DNA from: Alphaproteobacteria bacterium | GTDB taxonomy: Bacteria > Pseudomonadota > Alphaproteobacteria > Rs-D84 | Direction: 5' to 3' | DNA: 64,000 nt | NCBI GenBank assembly: GCA_017466525.1 | Contig: JAFTTY010000035.1 | Coordinates: 13,039-77,038 of the forward strand | Part shown: piece after piece, positions 6,002 through 64,000 of the stretch | Layout: each line of letters opens with the position of its first letter | How positions within the stretch are numbered: position 1 is the stretch's first letter | Position numbers and translations under genes: made by a program | The notes under the pieces: model-generated | Databases searched by the model: none | What the model was told of the DNA's origin: nothing | The model's input: the letters and a program-made list of their open reading frames with translations, nothing else

Positions 6002-7540
6002 ATGTCTTTTGTATCTATGCCTCGTCAAGATTTGCTGTTGGCCATTGATTCTTTGGCCCAGGAAAAGCAGATTGACCGTGAAATCGTTATTGAATCACTA
6101 GAAGCGGCGATTGCCAAAATTGCAAAACATAAATATGGCGAAGAATTTAATATCACTGCCAGTATTGACCGCAAGAATGGCGCGATTTATGTAAAACGCT
6201 TGTTTGATGTTATTGAATCACCTGAATCTGTTGGCGAAGAATACGATGCAAATACAATGTTAACTGTCGCCCAGGCAAAGAAATATGCAAAAAGCCCGGT
6301 TGTTGGTGACGTGGTCGAAGATGCCCTGCCAGAACCAGAATTTGGCCGTATGGCATTCCAAACCGCGAAACAAATCATGACTGCACGCGTACGTGACGCT
6401 GAAAAAGGTCGTCAGTACGAAGACTTCAAAGATAACATCGGCGATATCGTCAGTGGCGTTGTTAAACGTATTGAATTCGGCAACGTTTTTGTCGACATTA
6501 ATGGCAAGGCCGAAGGTTACATCAAGGGCACAGAATTAATCCCTGGTGAACGCTTGACGGTTGGTGACCGTGTTCGTGCAGTGATTATGGATGTTGCACG
6601 TTCTAATACAGGTCCTCAGATTTTCTTGACGCGTACACACCCAATGTTCATGGAAAAATTATTCGTTCAAGAAGTACCAGAAATCTACGAAGGTTTGATT
6701 AAAATCAAATCTGTTGCACGTGCACCTGGCTCACACGCAAAAATCGCAGTTGAAACATCTGATCCATCAATTGATGCGGTTGGTATGACTGTTGGTATCA
6801 AGGGTACACGTATTCAGCCGGTTATTAACGAATGTCATGGCGAAAAAATTGACGTTATCTTGTATTCCGAAGACCCTGCTGTATTTATCGTTAATGCAAT
6901 GCAACCGGCCAAGGTCGCAAAAATCATCGTTGACGAAGATACACGCAGCGCAGCGGTCGTTGTAAACGAAGATCAGCAGTCTTTGGCAATTGGCCGTCGT
7001 GGTCAGAATGTTCGCCTGGCGTCACAATTAACAGGCTGGAATATCGACGTTATGAACGAGGCCGAAGAACAAGAACGTCGCGCCAAAGAATTTAAAGAAA
7101 AGACAGAATTATTTATTGGCGGTCTGGATGTTGATGAAATGATTGCACAATTACTGATTACCGAAGGTTTCCGTACAATCGAAGAAATCGCATTTGTTGA
7201 CATTTCTGAACTGGAAAGCATCGAAGGCTTTAACGCGGAATTGGCATCAGAATTACAGAAACGTGCAAAAGATTATTTAAATAAAGTCGAACAAGACTAT
7301 CTGGACAACGGTCACAAATTGGGCATGTCTGATGACTTGTTAACATTTGACTTTATTAAACGTCCGACAATCATGAAATTGGGCGAAGCAGGAATCAAAT
7401 CGCTGGAAGATTTGGCTGATTTATCAACAGATGAATTGGTTGAAATCTTGGGCGAAGACACAATGAGTAATCGTTTGGCAGGTCGTGTAATTATGAAAGC
7501 ACGCGAAGTCGCATACGACATAAAACAAGACGAAGAGTAA
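6002..7540 (+). CDS. nusA: Transcription termination/antitermination factor NusA
   Basis: S1 and KH domains (GRRGQNVRLASQLTGW) and C-terminal HhH repeats; followed by infB. Confidence 0.97.
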   Translation: MSFVSMPRQDLLLAIDSLAQEKQIDREIVIESLEAAIAKIAKHKYGEEFNITASIDRKNGAIYVKRLFDVIESPESVGEEYDANTMLTVAQAKKYAKSPVVGDVVEDALPEPEFGRMAFQTAKQIMTARVRDAEKGRQYEDFKDNIGDIVSGVVKRIEFGNVFVDINGKAEGYIKGTELIPGERLTVGDRVRAVIMDVARSNTGPQIFLTRTHPMFMEKLFVQEVPEIYEGLIKIKSVARAPGSHAKIAVETSDPSIDAVGMTVGIKGTRIQPVINECHGEKIDVILYSEDPAVFIVNAMQPAKVAKIIVDEDTRSAAVVVNEDQQSLAIGRRGQNVRLASQLTGWNIDVMNEAEEQERRAKEFKEKTELFIGGLDVDEMIAQLLITEGFRTIEEIAFVDISELESIEGFNAELASELQKRAKDYLNKVEQDYLDNGHKLGMSDDLLTFDFIKRPTIMKLGEAGIKSLEDLADLSTDELVEILGEDTMSNRLAGRVIMKAREVAYDIKQDEE

Positions 7541-15032: not shown

Positions 15033-15061
15033 AAAAATACCGGCATTTGCCGGTGTTTTTT
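15033..15061. terminator. Bidirectional terminator between tRNA-Thr and convergent virD4
   Basis: A-run, hairpin ACCGGCATTTGCCGGT (15039-15054), then T-run. Confidence 0.8.
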
Positions 15062-17303
15062 ATTGTGTTAGCTCTTTTACCTGTTTTGTTTCCGGGTCAT
15101 ACACACGTGGTGCGCCTGGGTATCGCAACGCGCGGTGATGATGTGGCACCAGGTATTCTGGAATTGGTGCCGCCCTGCCCATCTTTACCTTGGCGGAAAT
15201 TTCTTTTTCTTTTGGTGTTTTTTCTTCAAAGTATCGCAGTGCTTCTGCCTCTATCGGGCGGTTATAGAACCCTTGGAACAATACCAACTGCTTGCCCATT
15301 TTCAATGTCATCAAATCCATTGGGCTGAACAGGTCTTCTTCTTTGGTGACTTCGGTATCTTTTCCGTCTGGGCCTTTTTCTTTCTTTTTTACTTTCTTTT
15401 TGCCAATCATGTCTGTAAAGCGTTGTGCCGTTGCCGGGTCATTTACACGCAGGATGATTTTTGCTGCACTATTTGCGATAACTGTATCTGCGGCCTTGTC
15501 GCCATATTTTTCAGCAATCTGGCTGATGTCCTGACCAACAATCAGGTATGAAACCTTTTGTCCACGACCAACGGCGGGTCCTTGTATAACTGCCTCTAAC
15601 TTATTCATTGTTGGCATTTCGTCCAACACGAACAGCGTTGGGTATGGCCCCAGTTTCTGACCGTGGTCCATATCTTCTGGTTTGTGTGCAATTAAAAAGT
15701 TTGATAACAATTCAACGAACATACTGGTAATTGGGCGGAATGCTGGTGCGTCTGCCACATTCATTGACAGGTATACCGTCACTGGTTTGACTTTGCCATC
15801 ACGTGGGTCAACCATACCGCGCAAATCGCCAAAGTGTAAATCAGAATGACGTGTGTGTTTATTAACCGCCGGATGACGGAAAATGTTCAAGCCGGCATTC
15901 ATTGTTGAAATAACAGAGCCACGTTCCTTGTCCGGTGTATTGGCCAGGTTAATAAGGGACGAAACAGCATCACTGTCATACGAATACAATTGGGCTTCGT
16001 TTACTGCTTCGTTCAAGAAGTCTTTCATTGGGTCTGCCATCATAACCATTTGGTCGCCTTGGCGTTTGCGTTCTTCGATTTGTTGGGCAACTTTGATTTG
16101 TCCTTCGACGTACCATGCCAAGAACATTGGTATTGATGCCTCGGCCCCGTGCCATTCTTTTGGTAACCCAGCCCAGGTTCCAACATGAACATAGTTGTTA
16201 ATATTTAATTCTCCACGTTGTAACAGCGCCATCGCTGCATACGCATTTGGATCGGCAGACATTGTCATATAATAATCCATCAACACCGCCGCATCTTGGG
16301 CATCAAATGTTCCATTTGATAATCTGGAATAGAAATAGTCATTTGCCTTGGCACGTTCAACCTTGGATACAATAAAGTTCACAAATCCCGTCAATGCTGC
16401 ACGTGCCGTATTTGACCAGTGTGGGTCCTTGGCATTTTCTTCGATGATTGTGTTAACAATAACCTGGATATATGTACTTTTTTCTTCTTCGGTTGCCGGC
16501 AGGTTTTCTGGTGACAATGGATTCCACGCCGGGTAATAGATACCTTTTTCTGGTTCGTCGCGTGCCGCCCAGTTTAATATAAACACCGGCCCAACGGTTG
16601 CGCGATATGCAGATGTTTTCAAATCTAATTCCGGTTTCGGGTCATTTACAATCATGGATACATTATCGCATTCCAAGATTGTTGGAATAACGCACCCGAT
16701 TGTTTTACCGGTACCTGCCGGTGCCAACAGCAATGCAGACAAACATTCGTCCATCTTTAATGCCTTGCCCTTGAAATAGCCCAATACCATCATAAAACCA
16801 CCAAACAGACCGTTTTTGTTCTTCCAGTCTGCGGCCATTTTTTTAATATCAGCCTCGTTCGCGACACGTGCAGTTTTCTCTTCGAATTTATCCTTGCTGT
16901 GTGGGTTAAATTCATCGGCCATTGTTGCGTCTGATAAAAAGTAATATCCGATAATTGGAATTAATGGCGCAATACATGCCCAGTCTGGACGGGCAACCGC
17001 GCGTGCAATCCATGCAGGAATTTCTGCCACCACAGACATCCCCAATGTTGTCACCATTTGATAAAGATATATACCAATCCAATGCCGTGTTGCCGGCGAC
17101 CAACCATAACGCCATATTTGTTCGGCCGGAAACGACATTGCGAACATCAGTGCGCCAATTAACCAAATTATAATTGCCCAACGTATCGACCAAAACTCAC
17201 GCGCCAATGGGGTTTGTTCATGTTCCTTGTATTTTGTGGAATCAAAAATCCCCAGGCCTTTGCCCTTGCCCGATGCTGATAAAAAGTTGAATTTTATTGC
17301 CAT
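15060..17303 (-). CDS. virD4: Type IV secretion coupling protein (VirD4/TraG family)
   Basis: N-terminal TM helices, Walker A LLLAPAGTGKT and Walker B TLFVLDEMPTM. The size of 747 aa is typical for a T4CP. Confidence 0.85.
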   Translation of the reverse strand: MAIKFNFLSASGKGKGLGIFDSTKYKEHEQTPLAREFWSIRWAIIIWLIGALMFAMSFPAEQIWRYGWSPATRHWIGIYLYQMVTTLGMSVVAEIPAWIARAVARPDWACIAPLIPIIGYYFLSDATMADEFNPHSKDKFEEKTARVANEADIKKMAADWKNKNGLFGGFMMVLGYFKGKALKMDECLSALLLAPAGTGKTIGCVIPTILECDNVSMIVNDPKPELDLKTSAYRATVGPVFILNWAARDEPEKGIYYPAWNPLSPENLPATEEEKSTYIQVIVNTIIEENAKDPHWSNTARAALTGFVNFIVSKVERAKANDYFYSRLSNGTFDAQDAAVLMDYYMTMSADPNAYAAMALLQRGELNINNYVHVGTWAGLPKEWHGAEASIPMFLAWYVEGQIKVAQQIEERKRQGDQMVMMADPMKDFLNEAVNEAQLYSYDSDAVSSLINLANTPDKERGSVISTMNAGLNIFRHPAVNKHTRHSDLHFGDLRGMVDPRDGKVKPVTVYLSMNVADAPAFRPITSMFVELLSNFLIAHKPEDMDHGQKLGPYPTLFVLDEMPTMNKLEAVIQGPAVGRGQKVSYLIVGQDISQIAEKYGDKAADTVIANSAAKIILRVNDPATAQRFTDMIGKKKVKKKEKGPDGKDTEVTKEEDLFSPMDLMTLKMGKQLVLFQGFYNRPIEAEALRYFEEKTPKEKEISAKVKMGRAAPIPEYLVPHHHRALRYPGAPRVYDPETKQVKELTQ

Positions 17304-56560: not shown

Positions 56561-59500
56561 ATGTCTTTTCTGAAAAATACAGTTAGTTTAGTGGCGCTTT
56601 TTAGCGTAATTCCGGCTGCCCAGGCGGTCACGGCACGTGCCAGTGCGATACCTACGTCGAATGTCGTGGTGACGGCTGCGGGGCGTCGTATGCCGACAAT
56701 GACCGCGTATTTGGGTGCGGCTGGTTCTGGTTCTGGAAGTATATCTGGTTCTACATCATCTGGCTCTACGTCATCGTCTACACTGTTGGAAAATACAGAA
56801 TGTATTGATGCCTATACTGGTTGTATCAAGGGGGCAGAGGCATGCGGTCCAAACTTCGAAGAATGTACGACCAAGGTTTTATTCCATGGCAAAATGCCAC
56901 AATGTCTCAGCACGCTGGCCCAATGTTCGTCTGGCGGTGTCAGCAGCTTGTTTGGTACATCAGATGTTTCTGCGTTATCAACGGTTGCAACAACAAATAC
57001 CTATGGCGAAGTGACGGATTATGCATATCCAACCGACGGCAGTGTTTTGGGACAAATGATTACCGCTGCGGCGATTGAAAACAAGTATGATACGTCAACG
57101 TGCGTTCGTCGCTTTACATCATGCTTAAAGAAAGAAAGCGTCTGTGGCGAAGATTTTGAGTTGTGTACAACAAATACCGAATTCCGTAAACAACGTGTGT
57201 TTTGTGATTCTACACTTGCGCGTTGTCAGTCTGATGGTTTGATTGAATTGTTGGGATCTGCGAACATGACCGCAATGCCAACCGCAACCAGTCGTGTTGG
57301 CGAAATGATTAGCGAAGGTGCGGCCTTGGCTGCGATAAACGCGGTATCCACGTGTTACAAGGTTGCAGACCAGTGTATCTTGAATGCATGTTCTGCAAAT
57401 CCGTTCAAGTGTCACGAAAATGCAAGTCAGGCGGTCAGTGATTTGGCTGAAAGCATTTCAACGGGTGTTGCGCCTGCGACGGCGGCAGATATGACTGCTG
57501 TGTTGACCAAGTCTGCGATTTCTGGCTATATCAAGAATTCCTGTATGGATACGATTGGTTCGAATAAATATTGCTATGCAACATTTATCGGCGATGGTCA
57601 GATGCCAACATCATCGCAATTGCGTGACGAAGATAACAAAGAAGAAATTTATAGCCTGGCATACAGTTCGCGTATGAATTCTGGGATGAAGGCAAAAATT
57701 TCAGAAATGATTAACAAATTCGATACCAAGGCCAAGGAAAAGTGTGTAAACACAATCAAAACATGTGCAATGCGTGTTTGTGGTTCTGGGTCTGGTGCAT
57801 CTTGTTATGCTCAGGTATTTGGTGCAACAAACAAGACGATTAATAACGCCTATACCCACAATGAAATCAAGGTTGGGTGTGAAGCTGTTGTTAATTCTGA
57901 TGCGAATTGTCAATATGCGGCCCAGAATCCAAATTCTACGGGTACATATAACTATACATTTTCTGATGCGAACACATTCAGCACCTTGTTCCCTGTATAT
58001 GACGATGGTGCCGAAGGCGATCCAATTGGCGTAATTGCATCTTTGAATGCATCCTTGGCAACAAGTTATAGTGATGCCGCTATCGCCCAGATGAAAAAGC
58101 AATGTCAATCTGTTGCAACATCTTGTGTGCGTTCACTGTGCGGTACAGATTTTGTAAATTGCTATCGCAATCGTACGGACATCTATTCGTCATTGACCAA
58201 CACGGGCAGTACATCTTTCGATAAGTCTATGAACAAGGTCGGCGGTGTTCTGGATTATACAATTGTGTTGGGCTTGTGCGTTGACACTGTTAAAAACGCA
58301 TCTGTCTGTGAAGAACATTTGGCAATAGAGGCCAACAAGATTAAAATGTCTGATAAATCTGGCAGTTCGTCAAACTGGGGTACCGGTTCTGTACGTTCTG
58401 ACTGGGTTGATGCCGGTTCTGCATCAAAAATGGACGAAGTTCTGGAACAGGTTCAGGCTGTTGATGAAAATGGTAACGAACTGTGTTCGAACAAGGCCGG
58501 CGACCAGGGACCATGTTATACAGTTGACGCGTCTGGTGCGGTATATGACACACCGGTAAAGATTGGTTATGTCACATACGTTGAATCCCAGGCGGCAAGT
58601 TCATTGTTCAAAGACCTGATCTATGATTTGGAAATCGAGGCCCAGGCAAAATATAATGCCAAATTGACCAAGCAGCAGAATATGTGCTTGTCATCGAACA
58701 GTGGTGGTATTATTGGGGCCAAGGACACTGGTTCAACATATATGTGGGTTAAGTTGAAATCAACCAAGGTTCCAGCGAACTATTCTGTATCTGGTTTGAA
58801 AACATCGCAATTCGCGGCCAGTAACGAATTGTATGGTTCGTTCTGTCGTATCCGTGTGACATTGCATTCCGAAGACAAGGATATCCAAGAAGCGATCCAA
58901 AAGGGTGCAGATTGGTCAACGGCATACTTTGCAGCGGGTGATCCGTTCACATGTGGTTCATGGATTCCACAGGCAAAGTTAGAAGAAATTGCCGCAGCGG
59001 CGGGCGAACGTGCGCGCGAAGAAAAAGATCAAGAACAAGGTGATTGGAAGGGTTGGATAACTGCCTTGGGTACGATTGGTGGTGGTGTTGGTGGTGCATA
59101 CCTGGGCAAGGGCATCAGCGACGGTTCTATCATGGGCGGCTTAACCGGCAATACCAAGACAAACACCGCCAAGGATGACTTTGAAAAATTACAGAAAAAC
59201 TGTAAGTCGTATGCACGTGTCGTAAAATCGAATTTGACCCGAACTGGTTGGGCAACTGCGAAAGCTTACGCCGAAAAATTGCAAGGTATTTTGAGCGACA
59301 TGGGTATCACTGCTTATAGTACTCCTCAAGAATTGTCTGGTGTCGGCGCTTCGATTACTACTCCGAACTGCAAGGCCTCCAACGCCAAAGCTGATGCCGC
59401 CAACGACCAATATTGTTGTGTCGCAGGTAACTATGAAACTGTAACAGAATATGGTGGTTATTGTTATAACGATCAAGATGTAACAAAGTTTAAAACTCCT

Positions 59501-59821
59501 GTAGAGACTTGGATTAAACAAGTAGAACTTGCGTGTGAAGAAGCGACAGAAGAAGATTTTATGGAAAATAAAGGCGATGATTACAAAAAAGCACAAAAGA
59601 AAACTCGTACATCATCTGGTATCGGTGCGGCGGTTGGTGCGATTGCTGGTGGTATCTTGACATACAAGATTACAGACTCTATTGAAGATGCCGCCAAAGA
59701 CAAAGCAGAACGTCAGGCAATCGAAGAATTTATGGAAAACATCGGTTCCAAGATTCATTGCTTTATCGGTTCTGACGAAGTCGCAACCTATGGCGAAACA
59801 GTATCGACCAGTATGGAATAA
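56561..59821 (+). CDS. Large exported Cys-rich repeat protein with C-terminal glycine-zipper-like segments, 1086 aa, unknown function
   Basis: Signal peptide ...IPAAQA, a Ser/Gly-rich linker, at least five modules with fixed Cys spacing, and two Gly-rich hydrophobic segments near the C-terminus (GWITALGTIGGGVGGAYLG; GIGAAVGAIAGGILTY). Confidence 0.8.
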   Translation: MSFLKNTVSLVALFSVIPAAQAVTARASAIPTSNVVVTAAGRRMPTMTAYLGAAGSGSGSISGSTSSGSTSSSTLLENTECIDAYTGCIKGAEACGPNFEECTTKVLFHGKMPQCLSTLAQCSSGGVSSLFGTSDVSALSTVATTNTYGEVTDYAYPTDGSVLGQMITAAAIENKYDTSTCVRRFTSCLKKESVCGEDFELCTTNTEFRKQRVFCDSTLARCQSDGLIELLGSANMTAMPTATSRVGEMISEGAALAAINAVSTCYKVADQCILNACSANPFKCHENASQAVSDLAESISTGVAPATAADMTAVLTKSAISGYIKNSCMDTIGSNKYCYATFIGDGQMPTSSQLRDEDNKEEIYSLAYSSRMNSGMKAKISEMINKFDTKAKEKCVNTIKTCAMRVCGSGSGASCYAQVFGATNKTINNAYTHNEIKVGCEAVVNSDANCQYAAQNPNSTGTYNYTFSDANTFSTLFPVYDDGAEGDPIGVIASLNASLATSYSDAAIAQMKKQCQSVATSCVRSLCGTDFVNCYRNRTDIYSSLTNTGSTSFDKSMNKVGGVLDYTIVLGLCVDTVKNASVCEEHLAIEANKIKMSDKSGSSSNWGTGSVRSDWVDAGSASKMDEVLEQVQAVDENGNELCSNKAGDQGPCYTVDASGAVYDTPVKIGYVTYVESQAASSLFKDLIYDLEIEAQAKYNAKLTKQQNMCLSSNSGGIIGAKDTGSTYMWVKLKSTKVPANYSVSGLKTSQFAASNELYGSFCRIRVTLHSEDKDIQEAIQKGADWSTAYFAAGDPFTCGSWIPQAKLEEIAAAAGERAREEKDQEQGDWKGWITALGTIGGGVGGAYLGKGISDGSIMGGLTGNTKTNTAKDDFEKLQKNCKSYARVVKSNLTRTGWATAKAYAEKLQGILSDMGITAYSTPQELSGVGASITTPNCKASNAKADAANDQYCCVAGNYETVTEYGGYCYNDQDVTKFKTPVETWIKQVELACEEATEEDFMENKGDDYKKAQKKTRTSSGIGAAVGAIAGGILTYKITDSIEDAAKDKAERQAIEEFMENIGSKIHCFIGSDEVATYGETVSTSME

Positions 59822-59854
59822 TTCACACCGATGTTGAATTATCTAACAAAACAA

Positions 59855-59881
59855 AAAACGGGAACCCTTTCCCGTTTTTTT
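59855..59881 (+). terminator. Intrinsic terminator
   Basis: Hairpin CGGGAACCCTTTCCCG followed by T7. Confidence 0.85.
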
Positions 59882-60080: not shown

Positions 60081-61040
60081 TTATACGTCTTCCAAGATTT
60101 CTTTTAATTCTGCCATATCTTCGGGCAGGCGCGATTTAAAACGCATCTGTTTTCCCGTCACAGGATGAACAAATTCCAACAATTCGGCATGCAACATTTG
60201 CCCATCGTGTTCTTTTAAAAAATCCAATAAATATTCATCTTTTACAGACCCCAGTCTGGTTGTGCCACGCCCATAAATCGGGTCGCATAAAACCGGAAAT
60301 CCATGTGCAGACAAATGAACGCGAATCTGATGTGTGCGCCCCGTAAATAAAGTACAGCGAAATTCAGATACACCCGCGCGTGGCCACGCATTTATAACCG
60401 CCACAGCCGTCTGTGCAGGTTTTCCCCCAGACTTTACCATTGTCATTTTTTGACGATTACGTGACGAACGCGCAATGTTTCCGGTTATGTCTGCTTCTTC
60501 CCAATTGGGGACGCCCCAAACAAAGGCAACATATTTACGTGTTAAATCATGTTCTGAAAATATTTTAACCAATCCACGATATGCCGCATCTGATTTTGCA
60601 AATACCATAACACCACTGGTGTCTTTGTCCAGACGATGTACAACGCCCGGTCGCGTATCGCCCCCCAGTGTCGACAAATGCGTATGCGCCAGTATGTTTT
60701 GAACCAGTGTTCCTGTCTTGTTCCCCGCAGATGGATACATAACAACACCACGTGGTTTATTAATTACAATTATGTCGTCGTCTTCGAATAAAATGTCTAA
60801 ATCGAAATCAGATGATATGTTTTCGGTCGCAATTTCTGTTTGTGGCGTTGGTATTTCAACAGTGAACACATCGCCGACCTTAATCTTTTCAGAAAATTTC
60901 ACCGCACCACCATTTGCACGTGTCACATTAAATTTTTGAATTTCACTGCGTGAAAATTCGGGCATCTGTCCCGATAAATATTTATCAACGCGTACAATAT
61001 CATCTGTATCAGATACAATAAATTCACGAACGGTTGTCAT
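60081..61040 (-). CDS. rluD: 23S rRNA pseudouridine synthase, RluA/RluD family
   Basis: N-terminal S4-like domain, HRLDKDTSG catalytic motif and C-terminal GRTHQIRVH. Confidence 0.92.
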   Translation of the reverse strand: MTTVREFIVSDTDDIVRVDKYLSGQMPEFSRSEIQKFNVTRANGGAVKFSEKIKVGDVFTVEIPTPQTEIATENISSDFDLDILFEDDDIIVINKPRGVVMYPSAGNKTGTLVQNILAHTHLSTLGGDTRPGVVHRLDKDTSGVMVFAKSDAAYRGLVKIFSEHDLTRKYVAFVWGVPNWEEADITGNIARSSRNRQKMTMVKSGGKPAQTAVAVINAWPRAGVSEFRCTLFTGRTHQIRVHLSAHGFPVLCDPIYGRGTTRLGSVKDEYLLDFLKEHDGQMLHAELLEFVHPVTGKQMRFKSRLPEDMAELKEILEDV

Positions 61041-61052
61041 TTTATATCTGTC

Positions 61053-61517
61053 CTATTTATATTCGTCCCAGTCTGGGCCAACTATACAATCAGACAAATC
61101 TATTGTCAATTCGCGCCCTTTATCAGATATTGGGCATGTCAGAATACCGGTTGTTGTTGCCTGGTCCGCATCACGCGTGGCATTACGATATGCGAATTTT
61201 ATTTCTGTCGGGGCGGCAACGCACGCGATATGTAAATCATTATCTGTTTTGCCATCCGGCCCAACCCAAACACGCACGCCATAGCCCAAACCATAACATG
61301 GGAAGCCATCCAGATAGTATAATACCAACCCACGTCCCACTAATTTTTTATCAGAAATAAATTTCCCGTTATATTCATTTAGTGTTAAACCTGTCACCGC
61401 TTCCCAGTCTGTACTGGTGGAAAAAATACTAACCCTTGGTTGTTGTGGTGGCGTTGTGGCGGCATTCGCGCCACATGTTAACAACAGACCGGCAAATATA
61501 GATGCAATTTTTTTCAT
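61053..61517 (-). CDS. Hypothetical exported protein, 154 aa
   Basis: Signal peptide MKKIASIFAGLLLTCGANA. Its start overlaps the stop of the upstream zinc-ribbon gene. Confidence 0.6.
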   Translation of the reverse strand: MKKIASIFAGLLLTCGANAATTPPQQPRVSIFSTSTDWEAVTGLTLNEYNGKFISDKKLVGRGLVLYYLDGFPCYGLGYGVRVWVGPDGKTDNDLHIACVAAPTEIKFAYRNATRDADQATTTGILTCPISDKGRELTIDLSDCIVGPDWDEYK

Positions 61518-62038
61518 TTCTTTTCCTGTGGGACTTGTAAATCTGCAAAATGTGCAGAAATCTTTTTTACGCCGGCAGGTTGCGCTGATAAAATATGACT
61601 AAAACTGACCGTTGCACCCGAATCCAGCAATGTTGCCGATGGCATAAATTTCTGTTGTGCCAGAACCCGTCCTTCGTCATCAGTTGAAACAATGATTAAA
61701 TCAGGCACGCCATAAATTTCATCAGACACATTTTGAATTTCGCCATTTACAACGACGTGCAACAATCCATTTTCGTCGGTTGTGGTTTCAACGCTTAAAA
61801 CATTTGCGATTAATGGACCACGATTAGCCTTTTTTGCCTGGTGGTGTGTGATAACCGCCACTGTAAATATAATCGCAGACAACAGTGCGCACAGCGCCGC
61901 AAAGAACATCAGCCATGCATTTTTACGTGGTTGTGTTGTGACAACCCATTCATGACCACATACGGCACACTTTACCGGCGTGTTTGGTATTCTGTCCAGG
62001 TTGTATTCAGTCTTACAAAAGTCACATTTTATTTTCAT
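61514..62038 (-). CDS. MJ0042-type zinc-ribbon membrane protein (DUF3426-like)
   Basis: CDFC...(16)...CAVCGHEW zinc ribbon, one TM helix, then a beta-rich C-terminal domain. Confidence 0.7.
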   Translation of the reverse strand: MKIKCDFCKTEYNLDRIPNTPVKCAVCGHEWVVTTQPRKNAWLMFFAALCALLSAIIFTVAVITHHQAKKANRGPLIANVLSVETTTDENGLLHVVVNGEIQNVSDEIYGVPDLIIVSTDDEGRVLAQQKFMPSATLLDSGATVSFSHILSAQPAGVKKISAHFADLQVPQEKK

Positions 62039-62058
62039 ATTTTTAGTTATACCATAAT

Positions 62059-63375
62059 TTATTCTAAATGCAAACTGTGATATTTTCCGCTGACACGTTT
62101 TTGTATTTCGTGTATTGCGTTCATATAGTCTGCCACAGTCGCGTTTTTATTTGTCGCAACCGCGCCAAATATTTGACCTGATTCGGTTCCGTTGCCTTTT
62201 TCATTTCGTGTGGCCAAAACAGCCATACGATTTAATTCGACAAAAGACGCGTCTGCAAAGTTCGCAGTATTTGATTGTGCGTCCCAATAATACGCCGGAT
62301 TTGTTGAATCTTCGATTCTGTTGTTAACAACCAGACGTGGCGTTATAGAACCTGTAAAACCAACGGTTACAAACATTGCTTCTATTCTGCCGGATGTCAT
62401 ATTCAACGATTGATTAATTTTCATAATGGCAAAGTCATCTGTTGCATCGATGTTTAACCCGCCCAGCGTTAAATCAGATACCCACATGTTTTCTGCGGTC
62501 AGTGATGAAAACTTTGCGACATCCCCCAATGTTAATCCGCCCGCGATTTCAATGTTTTTTGCATCTGATGACAACATTCCTGCAACCATTGTGTTTACGG
62601 ATTGATAGTTGCCGTCTATACTGGTTCTATTTTGAAAAATGACATTGTCAGAAACGATTTTATTAACAGTAGTATATTCGCTAATTTCTGTAAATTCTGC
62701 ATTTATAAATGTTGTATTTTTTATATCGTGTCCCCCCAGGTTTAATGCAGACATCATTTTTGCATCGTCTGGGTTTTGTGACGGTACGCGCCACAGATAC
62801 AGGGTTTCATCACGATTAACCTTGGTTGTTTCAATAATTGCATTGTCTACATCCAGGTCCAAATCAATTGCATCAGCATGCCATGTGCCGAATGTTCCAT
62901 ATGCAGTTGTTTCATCTATGAATCCCATTGAACCACTGGACAGGTTAACAATTTCACGTGTACGCAGTGGTGTTATGTCGTCCGATACACGTACCACAAT
63001 ACCTTGTAACGTAGATTGTCCAATACCATCACTAGATTTCAATATTCGTAATTGATATTTTTTATCGCCTTCATTTACGATGGTATCCGCCAAACCAAAT
63101 TCCGCCAAGTCAGCAATATCGACCCGCGTGATGTTGCGTCCAACTGTTTTTAATAATTCAGGTCTGTTTGCGACGATATATCTTTCCAGTGCCGTTTGTA
63201 TTTGCGACATCTGATTTGTTATAGCAATATTTTGTGCACGTATGGCGGCATTTTGTTGATTCTTGAATGCGAACGGAATTATAATCGCCGCCAATGCAAT
63301 ACTAAGCAGCAGTTCAACCAGCATACTGCCACGCGAATTGTTTTTATCTGCAAAAATACATCTGTTGTTTTTCAT
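62059..63375 (-). CDS. Pilin/pseudopilin-like protein with prepilin-type N-terminus and a large repeat-rich C-terminal domain
   Basis: N-terminus ...NNSRG|SMLVELLLSIALAAIIIPFAF: Gly, then Glu at +5, then a hydrophobic helix, the class III signal pattern. The remaining 400 aa are N/I/T-rich and look beta-helix-like. Confidence 0.65.
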   Translation of the reverse strand: MKNNRCIFADKNNSRGSMLVELLLSIALAAIIIPFAFKNQQNAAIRAQNIAITNQMSQIQTALERYIVANRPELLKTVGRNITRVDIADLAEFGLADTIVNEGDKKYQLRILKSSDGIGQSTLQGIVVRVSDDITPLRTREIVNLSSGSMGFIDETTAYGTFGTWHADAIDLDLDVDNAIIETTKVNRDETLYLWRVPSQNPDDAKMMSALNLGGHDIKNTTFINAEFTEISEYTTVNKIVSDNVIFQNRTSIDGNYQSVNTMVAGMLSSDAKNIEIAGGLTLGDVAKFSSLTAENMWVSDLTLGGLNIDATDDFAIMKINQSLNMTSGRIEAMFVTVGFTGSITPRLVVNNRIEDSTNPAYYWDAQSNTANFADASFVELNRMAVLATRNEKGNGTESGQIFGAVATNKNATVADYMNAIHEIQKRVSGKYHSLHLE

Positions 63376-64000
63376 TTATTGAATTACGTCTGTTGTTTTG
63401 TTTGTTGCCTGCCATCCGTCGCGCATCAGTGCGTCAAATTCGGTGTTCTTTGGTGGTTCTGGTCGTGTTGCGCGTGATACAGAAAAACTTGAAAAATGTG
63501 GTGGCTTGGTTGACGGGAAAACCCAGGAACCAATTTTTAACGGTGACGTTGTTGACATCAACAATTCGCCTGAAACGGTCAGACCAAAATTATCATAGAA
63601 CATCATTTCTTCGGCATAAATATATGGTGTATAAACAGAATTTGCAGTTATTCCTGTGAATCCGCTGATTGTACGCGTACTGTCTGATTTTAATGTCATA
63701 TTGTTTGCAACGTTTATTTTGTTTGTTATTGTTGCGCGGTCTGCGATTATACGTCCTGTGGTTGTATATCCGTTACCATTGATATTATCAGACGTTATGT
63801 TTTTAAAACCAGACATGTCAGCAGATACACGAATATTCCCAAGATTAATATTTGCGTTATCTATATTTGCGCCTGTGGAAAAATAGACATTGTTTGCAAC
63901 GATGTCAGTCGCGTCAACAAATGTAGAGTTTATATTCTTTATCTTTGCAGATTCTGCATTTAGATTTGCAACGTTGTAAACATGATGGTTTGCCATGTCT
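63376..64000 (-). CDS. N/I-rich repeat (beta-helix-like) protein, probably 5'-truncated by the window edge
   Basis: The frame is still open at nt 64000. Degenerate repeats (NINSTFVDATDIVANNVYF, NIDNANINLGNIRV, NITSDNINGNG). The stop abuts the start of the pilin-like gene. Confidence 0.55.
   Translation of the reverse strand, partial: DMANHHVYNVANLNAESAKIKNINSTFVDATDIVANNVYFSTGANIDNANINLGNIRVSADMSGFKNITSDNINGNGYTTTGRIIADRATITNKINVANNMTLKSDSTRTISGFTGITANSVYTPYIYAEEMMFYDNFGLTVSGELLMSTTSPLKIGSWVFPSTKPPHFSSFSVSRATRPEPPKNTEFDALMRDGWQATNKTTDVIQ

Follow-up and report, generated by a model that had tools for sequence, protein, structure and literature searches.

Three tandem PilV-like proteins as likely components of a chromosomal type IVb-like pilus in Candidatus Enterousia

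In type IVb pili of the IncI type, the minor pilin PilV serves as the adhesin that recognises recipients (PMC9045228). CofB and TcpB, the single large minor pilins of two other type IVb (T4b) pili, prime the assembly of the pilus and occupy its tip as a trimer, while in the type II secretion system (T2SS) GspK is the capping subunit of the GspI-GspJ-GspK complex (PMC7248040). Here, we compare these systems with a string of minus-strand genes at the right edge of a 64,000 nt stretch of DNA (the window) from an alphaproteobacterium of the order Rs-D84 (assembly GCA_017466525.1, contig JAFTTY010000035.1, positions 13,039 to 77,038 of the forward strand). An earlier reading of these letters (the original prediction) had proposed that the string might encode a module supplying the minor pilins or the tip adhesin of a type IV filament, and this proposal is now supported by homology to PilV, by a conserved prepilin-type signal and by assembly machinery in congeneric genomes. 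We consider it likely that three tandem proteins, named A, B and C, are PilV-lineage pilin-like proteins of a chromosomal, dispersed type IVb-like pilus in Enterousia-like bacteria, and that they serve as its tip adhesin.

The window holds gene C in full (62059 to 63375, minus strand), an open reading frame (ORF) for a 438-aa protein assigned by homology as a PilV-like minor pilin, and the 3′ part of gene B (63376 to beyond 64000, minus strand), a partial ORF for at least the C-terminal 206 aa that runs off the window. An identical 438-aa protein is encoded on two longer public contigs, L001 (GCA_017474005.1) and L002, where gene B is complete at 402 aa (L001 7892-9100 and L002 8792-10000) and is directly preceded upstream by gene A, encoding 451 aa; the cluster had been expected to continue past the window edge, and on these contigs it does so by this one further gene. 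All three large proteins open with a prepilin-like motif. In particular, protein C begins MKNNRCIFADKNNSRG↓SMLVELLLSIALAAIIIPF (arrows mark predicted cleavage), and the leader of protein B reads MTVFKSNIFTDTERG↓ASVMEV..., placing its cleavage site at G15↓A and Glu20 at +5.

The partial protein upstream of C, which had been noted for degenerate repeats like those of C, proves to be the C-terminal half of the 402-aa paralog. BLASTP comparisons among the paralogs are significant (B-C 9e-9, A-C 4e-5 and A-B 2e-5), as are hhalign comparisons of family profiles over the first 210-250 residues (B-C 99.7%, E 1.2e-25; A-C 98.5%, E 2.1e-15). On this sequence evidence, A, B and C are distant paralogs. 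Pfam and NCBIfam searches with the two large window proteins returned nothing significant, and the public annotation of all three pilin-like proteins is hypothetical protein only. In L001, a TAT to TAG change at about position 7012 splits gene A into 153 and 294 aa; L002 and L003, otherwise identical to L001 in this place, have an unbroken gene A, and the premature stop reflects either a nonsense allele at the level of the strain or a mistake in the assembly.

The N-termini of the three proteins were surveyed in 65 loci from about 60 species, two of these loci lacking an N-terminal read. Across Enterousia species, protein A begins ..RG↓NFLLQALLAL with Gln always at +5, protein B begins ..RG↓ASI(T/M/L)EVLLAMA with Glu always at +5, and protein C begins ..RG↓SMLVELLLSVA, also with Glu always at +5. 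Gly(-1) is present in every A, B and C N-terminus recovered, while the leader before it varies freely; a loss of the G-x4-E pattern among homologs was looked for, and these fixed positions are the opposite. For protein C, the predicted signal (63256 to 63375, minus strand) comprises a polar leader (residues 1-16) up to Gly16, a predicted cleavage site at G16↓S17, Glu21 as +5, and a hydrophobic alpha1-N with Pro34; in alignments, G16 hardly varies, and E21 and P34 vary little or not at all. The prepilin-type N-terminus that the original prediction had recognised in this protein (NNSRG↓SMLVE and a hydrophobic stretch) is thus one that its orthologs keep.

The same constraint extends to remote relatives. 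Searched with a profile, 1.84 billion representative proteins yielded a family of only 187 clusters; G-x4-E and the hydrophobic stretch are preserved in almost every full-length member, even at about 20% identity. The N_methyl (PF07963) and TIGR02532 models have no match in A, B or C at E <= 1, and 1 of 36 family members has a match, at 0.011. When the profile of the family is compared with the PDB, its leader and alpha1-N fall in register with those of solved type IV pilins, with E-values of 1.2e-3 and 7.2e-3 for Geobacter PilA-N and weaker matches to PilA and fimbrial proteins. Judged by their sequences, A, B and C carry a strongly constrained class III signal.

The kinship with PilV emerges from profile comparisons. 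A Shufflon_N (PF04917) match is precomputed for two orthologs, and 3 of the 36 family members reach this model (best E 2.8e-11); protein C of the window, taken alone, falls below Pfam detection, and no Pfam or NCBIfam model reliably detects the A/B/C family. One remote family member, P0233, is a true PilV (Shufflon_N 2.3e-45; N-terminus AG↓FTLLEV) whose gene neighbours include a PilS-type pilin and a T2SSE ATPase. The C family aligns by hhalign with the P0233 PilV at 98.3% (E 1.7e-14, 253 columns) and, at 97.2% (E 4.1e-11), with a Bosea plasmid protein that NCBI annotates as "pilus tip adhesin PilV"; moreover, the motif YL.R...M...L.MGGH.I.N is common to the C family and the PilVs. By these alignments, A, B and C are remote homologs of PilV (the Shufflon_N lineage) and oversized pilin-like proteins. 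None of the three has a Pfam or NCBIfam match to the T2SS pseudopilin families (GspG-K).

Beyond the region shared with PilV, the C-terminal halves are less clearly defined. AlphaFold with a 10-sequence alignment gave an unusable model (predicted local distance difference test, pLDDT, 33), and a 36-sequence alignment gave a mean pLDDT of 72. This AF2 model of C has a 56-residue N-terminal helix (14-69), a beta-sheet (107-183) and a beta-rich region (221-372; mean pLDDT of 10-residue blocks about 51-73), followed by three C-terminal helices. Of the N/I/T-rich, beta-helix-like repeat body that had been described from the letters, the model retains a beta-rich region, but the repeats are not demonstrable and no fold in the PDB matches significantly. 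In particular, autocorrelation of the C-terminal halves reaches z <= 3.1 over 57 lags, which is not a significant periodicity; we therefore do not call them a repeat domain, and the label "400-aa repeat domain" was dropped. Hints of a beta-solenoid (3pet, bactofilin and FapA) were all non-significant. Because block pLDDT is low and a significant PDB fold match is lacking, a beta-helix-like C-terminal body is only a plausible guess from the model.

A candidate major pilin lies nearby. A motif scan of the flanks located a gene for a 152-aa protein directly after dnaX (L002 4879-5337, minus strand), about 2 kb beyond gene A and on the opposite strand, with its near end about 5 kb past the right edge of the window. 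The protein begins MKAESG↓RSLIEVIGVMAIAG and has an invariant C-terminal Cys pair. Its orthologs match Pfam PilS in 16 of 31 cases and N_methyl in 8 of 31, and the PDB matches of its profile are all named type IV pilins or fimbrial proteins, including TcpA, except 9lab_B (the mannose-sensitive hemagglutinin, MSHA, major pilin). The gene is conserved in at least 58 Enterousia genomes and is followed by OmpA-like and then OmpH-like genes. From these sequence matches, we read the 152-aa protein as a PilS-like major pilin. A Bosea 199-aa protein was considered as a PilS pilin and rejected for want of similarity, and the gene after the OmpH-like gene, considered as BamA, was rejected in favour of a Cys-rich protein without a family.

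The window itself has no pilB, pilC, pilD, pilQ or gsp gene, as had been stated earlier: T2SSE, T2SSF, A24 peptidase and secretin matches are recorded for none of its called genes. Whether filament machinery exists elsewhere was decisive for the original prediction, and an assembly ATPase, a platform protein and a PilO2-like protein do occur in congeneric genomes, but a prepilin peptidase was not located. In one Enterousia locus (L029; JAZSAG010000045.1), the pilin gene is followed by genes for OmpA-like, OmpH-like, 434-aa and 233-aa proteins and for a GspE/PilB-type ATPase with a Walker A motif (GPTSSGKST), a His box and a CPYC zinc motif. A search with this ATPase found more than 120 clusters at 87-95% identity in the same kind of metagenome-assembled genomes (MAGs), where the public names are "TadA" or "GspE/PulE family". 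Its usual context consists of a 138-aa lipoprotein, a protein of about 320 aa resembling outer membrane proteins (OMPs), PAP_PilO (3.7e-11), a 223-aa protein, the T2SSE assembly ATPase (544 aa) and T2SSF (1.6e-27). The order PilO2, X, ATPase and platform matches annotated type 4b clusters of Bosea and of E. coli plasmids; with its PilO2 and an ATPase closest to PilQ/BfpD-type ATPases, the machinery is of the type IVb kind and not a T2SS. On one contig (JAZQCH010000001.1), the machinery occupies 145,860-167,494 and the triplet locus 298,763-315,805, about 150 kb apart. Several more contigs agree in length between the matches to the triplet and those to the ATPase.

Two further observations concern the layout of these genes. 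Among the 65 loci, L029 (1-5345) is the sole one with PilO-like, PilP-like and ATPase genes directly after dnaX-pilin-OmpA-OmpH; pilins and machinery form one divergent cluster there, and this layout is either ancestral or a rearrangement. In reference type IVb clusters, PilO2 is preceded by TcpQ and a secretin, a position taken in Enterousia (L081 6437-7969; also L083 and L084) by the 138-aa lipoprotein and an OMP-like protein of 311-329 aa ending in Phe. The identification of the lipoprotein as TcpQ and of the OMP-like protein as a secretin was rejected, as BLASTP found no similarity.

The triplet is widely conserved. In a scan of GTDB species genomes, 65 proved to encode a C ortholog (49-89% identity); they bear the labels Candidatus Enterousia or uncultured Alphaproteobacteria and come from animal and human guts. 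Upstream of A, and divergent from it, lie a gene for a 99-aa protein and then dnaX; the order dnaX, 99-aa, A-B-C, zinc-ribbon, 154-aa and rluD is kept in essentially all 65 genomes, which answers the question of gene-order conservation posed at the outset, and also in L080, whose C ortholog is 42% identical. The 99-aa protein itself (L002 7003-7302, minus strand), basic/acidic in composition and with a weak DUF4167 match (1.2e-4), is found in nearly all loci.

Further, more remote triplets of consecutive paralogs sit among housekeeping genes, with lengths of 469, 455 and 489 aa in L007, 1236, 1083 and 1188 aa in L005/L006, and 443, 426 and 483 aa in L077 (a "Rickettsiales bacterium" MAG). The closest Enterousia counterpart of L007-3 is C and that of L007-2 is B, and so the order of genes within the triplet appears conserved. 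At +5, the product of the first triplet gene carries Gln in Enterousia, L080 and L077. Only within Rs-D84 is the triplet joined by the zinc-ribbon and 154-aa genes; the remote triplets have no zinc-ribbon neighbour. Overall, the triplet is a conserved unit across several reduced alphaproteobacterial lineages. As to expression, the runs that contain the sequence are DNA metagenomes only.

These organisms give the system its context. Enterousia, of the order Rs-D84, have genomes of 0.75-1.0 Mb, lack most biosynthesis, and are predicted to depend on partner cells whose metabolites they take (PMC12306168). Within such minimal genomes, the major pilin, the three PilV-like pilins and a type IVb core are retained under purifying selection. 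Because related genomes also encode the pilus motor, the PilV-like triplet and its pilus are probably the means by which the organism grips its partner cells. Rs-D84 and Candidatus Enterousia are widespread uncultured gut and rumen bacteria, and the pilus is a concrete candidate for their attachment apparatus.

The mechanism that we propose would have four steps. First, A, B and C would enter the inner membrane through their class III signals, and a prepilin peptidase would cut after the Gly. Second, one copy of each would come together by way of its N-terminal helix to form a tip or initiation complex, in which A, with its Gln at +5, would be the top or capping subunit; such a complex is probably heterotrimeric. 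Third, the PilO2, PilP-like, ATPase and platform machinery would polymerise the 152-aa pilin beneath the A-B-C complex. Fourth, the divergent beta-rich C-terminal domains would end up at the fibre tip, where they would act as an adhesin for a partner cell or surface.

Compared with PilV of the IncI1 and IncI2 plasmids (R64, TP114) and of PAPI-1-type islands, A, B and C likewise have a class III signal and a length of 400-500 aa, share a homologous N-terminal region of about 250 aa, and are paired with a PilS-type major pilin and a PilO2/PilP/ATPase/platform block in the same order. In contrast, PilV systems possess a shufflon, whereas here three full-length tandem paralogs take its place, one of them with Gln at +5: the 5-kb cluster contains no family of high-identity or sfx-like inverted repeats and there is no recombinase within 10 kb. 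A shufflon reading of the cluster was rejected, since it lacks sfx-like inverted repeats. PilV is encoded on a conjugative plasmid or island beside pilS-pilU, whereas the triplet is chromosomal, between dnaX and rluD/lptD, and its pilus genes are split into at least three loci. The C-terminal domains of A, B and C are unrelated to the known PilV variants, and the window proteins, unlike PilV, stay under the Pfam Shufflon_N threshold. What differs from known type IVb systems is a pilus that is chromosomal, dispersed and shufflon-less, with three PilV paralogs.

The tip complexes of other filaments offer a second comparison. CofB and TcpB, from the colonization factor antigen III (CFA/III) pilus of enterotoxigenic E. 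coli (ETEC) and the toxin-coregulated pilus (TCP) of V. cholerae, both type IVb, provide three tip subunits, as proposed for A, B and C; however, theirs is a homotrimer of one gene product, and here there are three diverged paralogs without detected similarity in sequence or fold to CofB or TcpB. GspI-J-K of the T2SS and PilV-W-X/FimU of type IVa (T4a) pili are instead distinct pilin-like subunits in a staggered tip complex with one large cap (PMC7248040). Their families are unrelated to A, B and C, with no Pfam match, and, unlike them, A, B and C are all large and similar in size and belong with type IVb machinery. According to Korotkov and Hol in 2008, GspK reportedly lacks Glu5. That lack would parallel the Gln found at +5 of gene A in every Enterousia ortholog with a recovered N-terminus.

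A more specific version of the proposal, an obligate A-B-C heterotrimeric tip with a Gln5 cap that acts as a partner-recognition organ for a bacterium living attached to other cells, possibly together with a type IV secretion system (T4SS) and an outer-membrane conduit other than a classical secretin, is tentative, and we hold it to be doubtful on balance. If true, the CofB/TcpB homotrimer would gain its first hetero-oligomeric counterpart. Three diverged paralogs in place of a single trimerising minor pilin would, in any case, be a natural experiment on how a tip complex is built and capped.

The kinship with PilV could also be taken to mean that the pilus chiefly stabilises mating pairs or other cell pairs for a T4SS, as PilV-tipped IncI and PAPI-1 pili do, rather than acting as a general adhesin. 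The closest known relatives are indeed conjugative PilV proteins (PMC9045228; see also PMC5297154), a VirD4/TraG coupling protein of 747 aa is encoded in the window (15060-17303, minus strand; T4SS-DNA_transf 4.5e-51), and in L081 the distance between a VirB4 gene and the pilus machinery is about 6 kb. However, the triplet sits among housekeeping genes, with neither a relaxase nor a shufflon nor a plasmid context, and, because the genome is smaller than 1 Mb, proximity to T4SS genes carries little weight. We regard this explanation as unlikely; it is also a variant of the tip-adhesin reading with another target and the same molecular identity. The reduced genome keeps a T4SS alongside the type IVb-like pilus.

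A filament used mainly for secretion or DNA uptake, with A, B and C as assembly initiators only and the 154-aa protein of the string possibly a secreted partner like CofJ or TcpF, appears still less probable. In ETEC and V. cholerae, T4b pili reportedly secrete a small protein that is encoded in their operon and attaches to the trimer of minor pilins (PMC6048534, PMC9565799); the 154-aa protein is likewise exported and is Cys-stabilised, its gene consistently stands two places after C, and DNA uptake would be useful to Rs-D84 bacteria, which have no nucleotide biosynthesis (PMC12306168). Yet the 154-aa protein has no sequence similarity to CofJ, TcpF or another family, no T2SS pseudopilin or competence Pfam family is recorded in the loci examined, and A, B and C each have a beta-rich C-terminal domain of 200 aa that resembles a display domain and not a minimal initiator.

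Several results weigh against a PilV-lineage tip adhesin on a type IVb-like pilus. The proteins A, B and C of the window's strain stay under the Pfam and NCBIfam thresholds for both N_methyl and Shufflon_N, and Foldseek with the whole model of C finds no match in the PDB below E 0.8. The machinery was seen in congeneric genomes and not directly in the window's own strain; the window and the surroundings of the machinery (two syntenic genome regions) yielded neither an A24 peptidase (by Pfam) nor a secretin, and a motif scan for A24 peptidases over 1.6 Mb of fetched, largely redundant loci gave 0 ORFs with both Asp motifs. The one published genome survey of Rs-D84 reported type IV pili only for another lineage (PMC12306168). 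Gene A has a premature stop in one MAG, and all three triplet proteins of L005 and L007 have Glu at +5, so that a "Gln cap" is not universal. Finally, we infer the heterotrimer, the tip location and the adhesin role, as well as the membership of the zinc-ribbon and 154-aa proteins in the pilin module. The same gaps, namely the missing peptidase in 1.6 Mb of fetched loci, the failure of the window proteins with N_methyl and TIGR02532, and a survey that did not report type IV pili for Enterousia (PMC12306168), would fit uncleaved signal anchors on non-filament proteins, held in the inner membrane and facing the periplasm or surface, with the pilin motif a relic, but we find this very improbable, as a relic would not keep Gly(-1) invariant and +5 fixed in about 60 species and in relatives of 20% identity while the leader varies, and genomes smaller than 1 Mb have retained the major pilin, assembly ATPase, platform and PilO.

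The remaining genes of the string confirm the four tightly packed minus-strand genes upstream of rluD that had been described, in their ORFs as in their junctions. The stop codon of gene B (TAA at 63378-63376) abuts the ATG of gene C at 63375, a gap of 20 nt separates gene C from the zinc-ribbon gene, and the zinc-ribbon and 154-aa genes overlap by 4 nt. A 12-nt gap then leads to the last gene of the string (60081 to 61040, minus strand), which encodes a RluD-family pseudouridine synthase of 319 aa (PseudoU_synth_2 2.2e-29). No minus-strand terminator-like site occurs within the five-gene string, including between the rluD-type gene and the genes upstream of it; because of this and the 12-nt gap, the rluD-type gene is probably co-transcribed with them. 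A bidirectional terminator-like hairpin (59853 to 59880, both strands; a 12-pair stem with T-runs on both strands) closes the string.

The zinc-ribbon gene (61514 to 62038, minus strand) encodes a bitopic 174-aa protein with an apparently ZitP-like architecture, as judged by its Cys motif and by Pfam matches in orthologs: an N-terminal CxxC-x15-CxxC zinc ribbon whose four Cys are invariant in the alignment, one transmembrane (TM) segment, and a periplasmic domain resembling DUF3426. Of 34 orthologs, 31 match Zn_ribbon_4 and 15 match DUF3426 at E <= 0.01 (best DUF3426 E 2.7e-6), and the window protein itself scores 6.9e-5 and 0.016, respectively, both under the curated cut-offs. Tad pilus biogenesis in Caulobacter crescentus depends on the periplasmic DUF3426 of ZitP (PMC5182063). 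The three parts of ZitP (zinc ribbon, TM and DUF3426) appear to recur in the 174-aa protein, but ZitP has 311 aa and the Pfam scores here are mostly below threshold; moreover, ZitP serves a Tad (type IVc) pilus, whereas the present system is type IVb-like and its remote triplets are without a ZitP-like neighbour.

The next gene (61053 to 61517, minus strand) encodes the 154-aa exported protein, an orphan that has a signal peptide and four invariant Cys and matches no sequence in Pfam or the PDB; it lies next to the zinc-ribbon gene in 63 of the 65 loci and in L080. Adjacency alone says little about a role with the pilins, because the whole region is syntenic in the lineage, and the zinc-ribbon and 154-aa proteins may help to assemble or localise the pilus, or bind its tip.

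Two Cys-rich proteins were also observed. In the window's strain, the OmpH-like gene beyond the candidate major pilin is followed by a gene for an 862-aa Cys-rich protein (L002 772-3360, minus strand), and the window contains, at 56561-59821 on the plus strand, a gene for a secreted Cys-rich protein of 1086 aa without a family match. The two proteins are weakly related to each other (E 1e-4) through repeated C..C..CG....C motifs.

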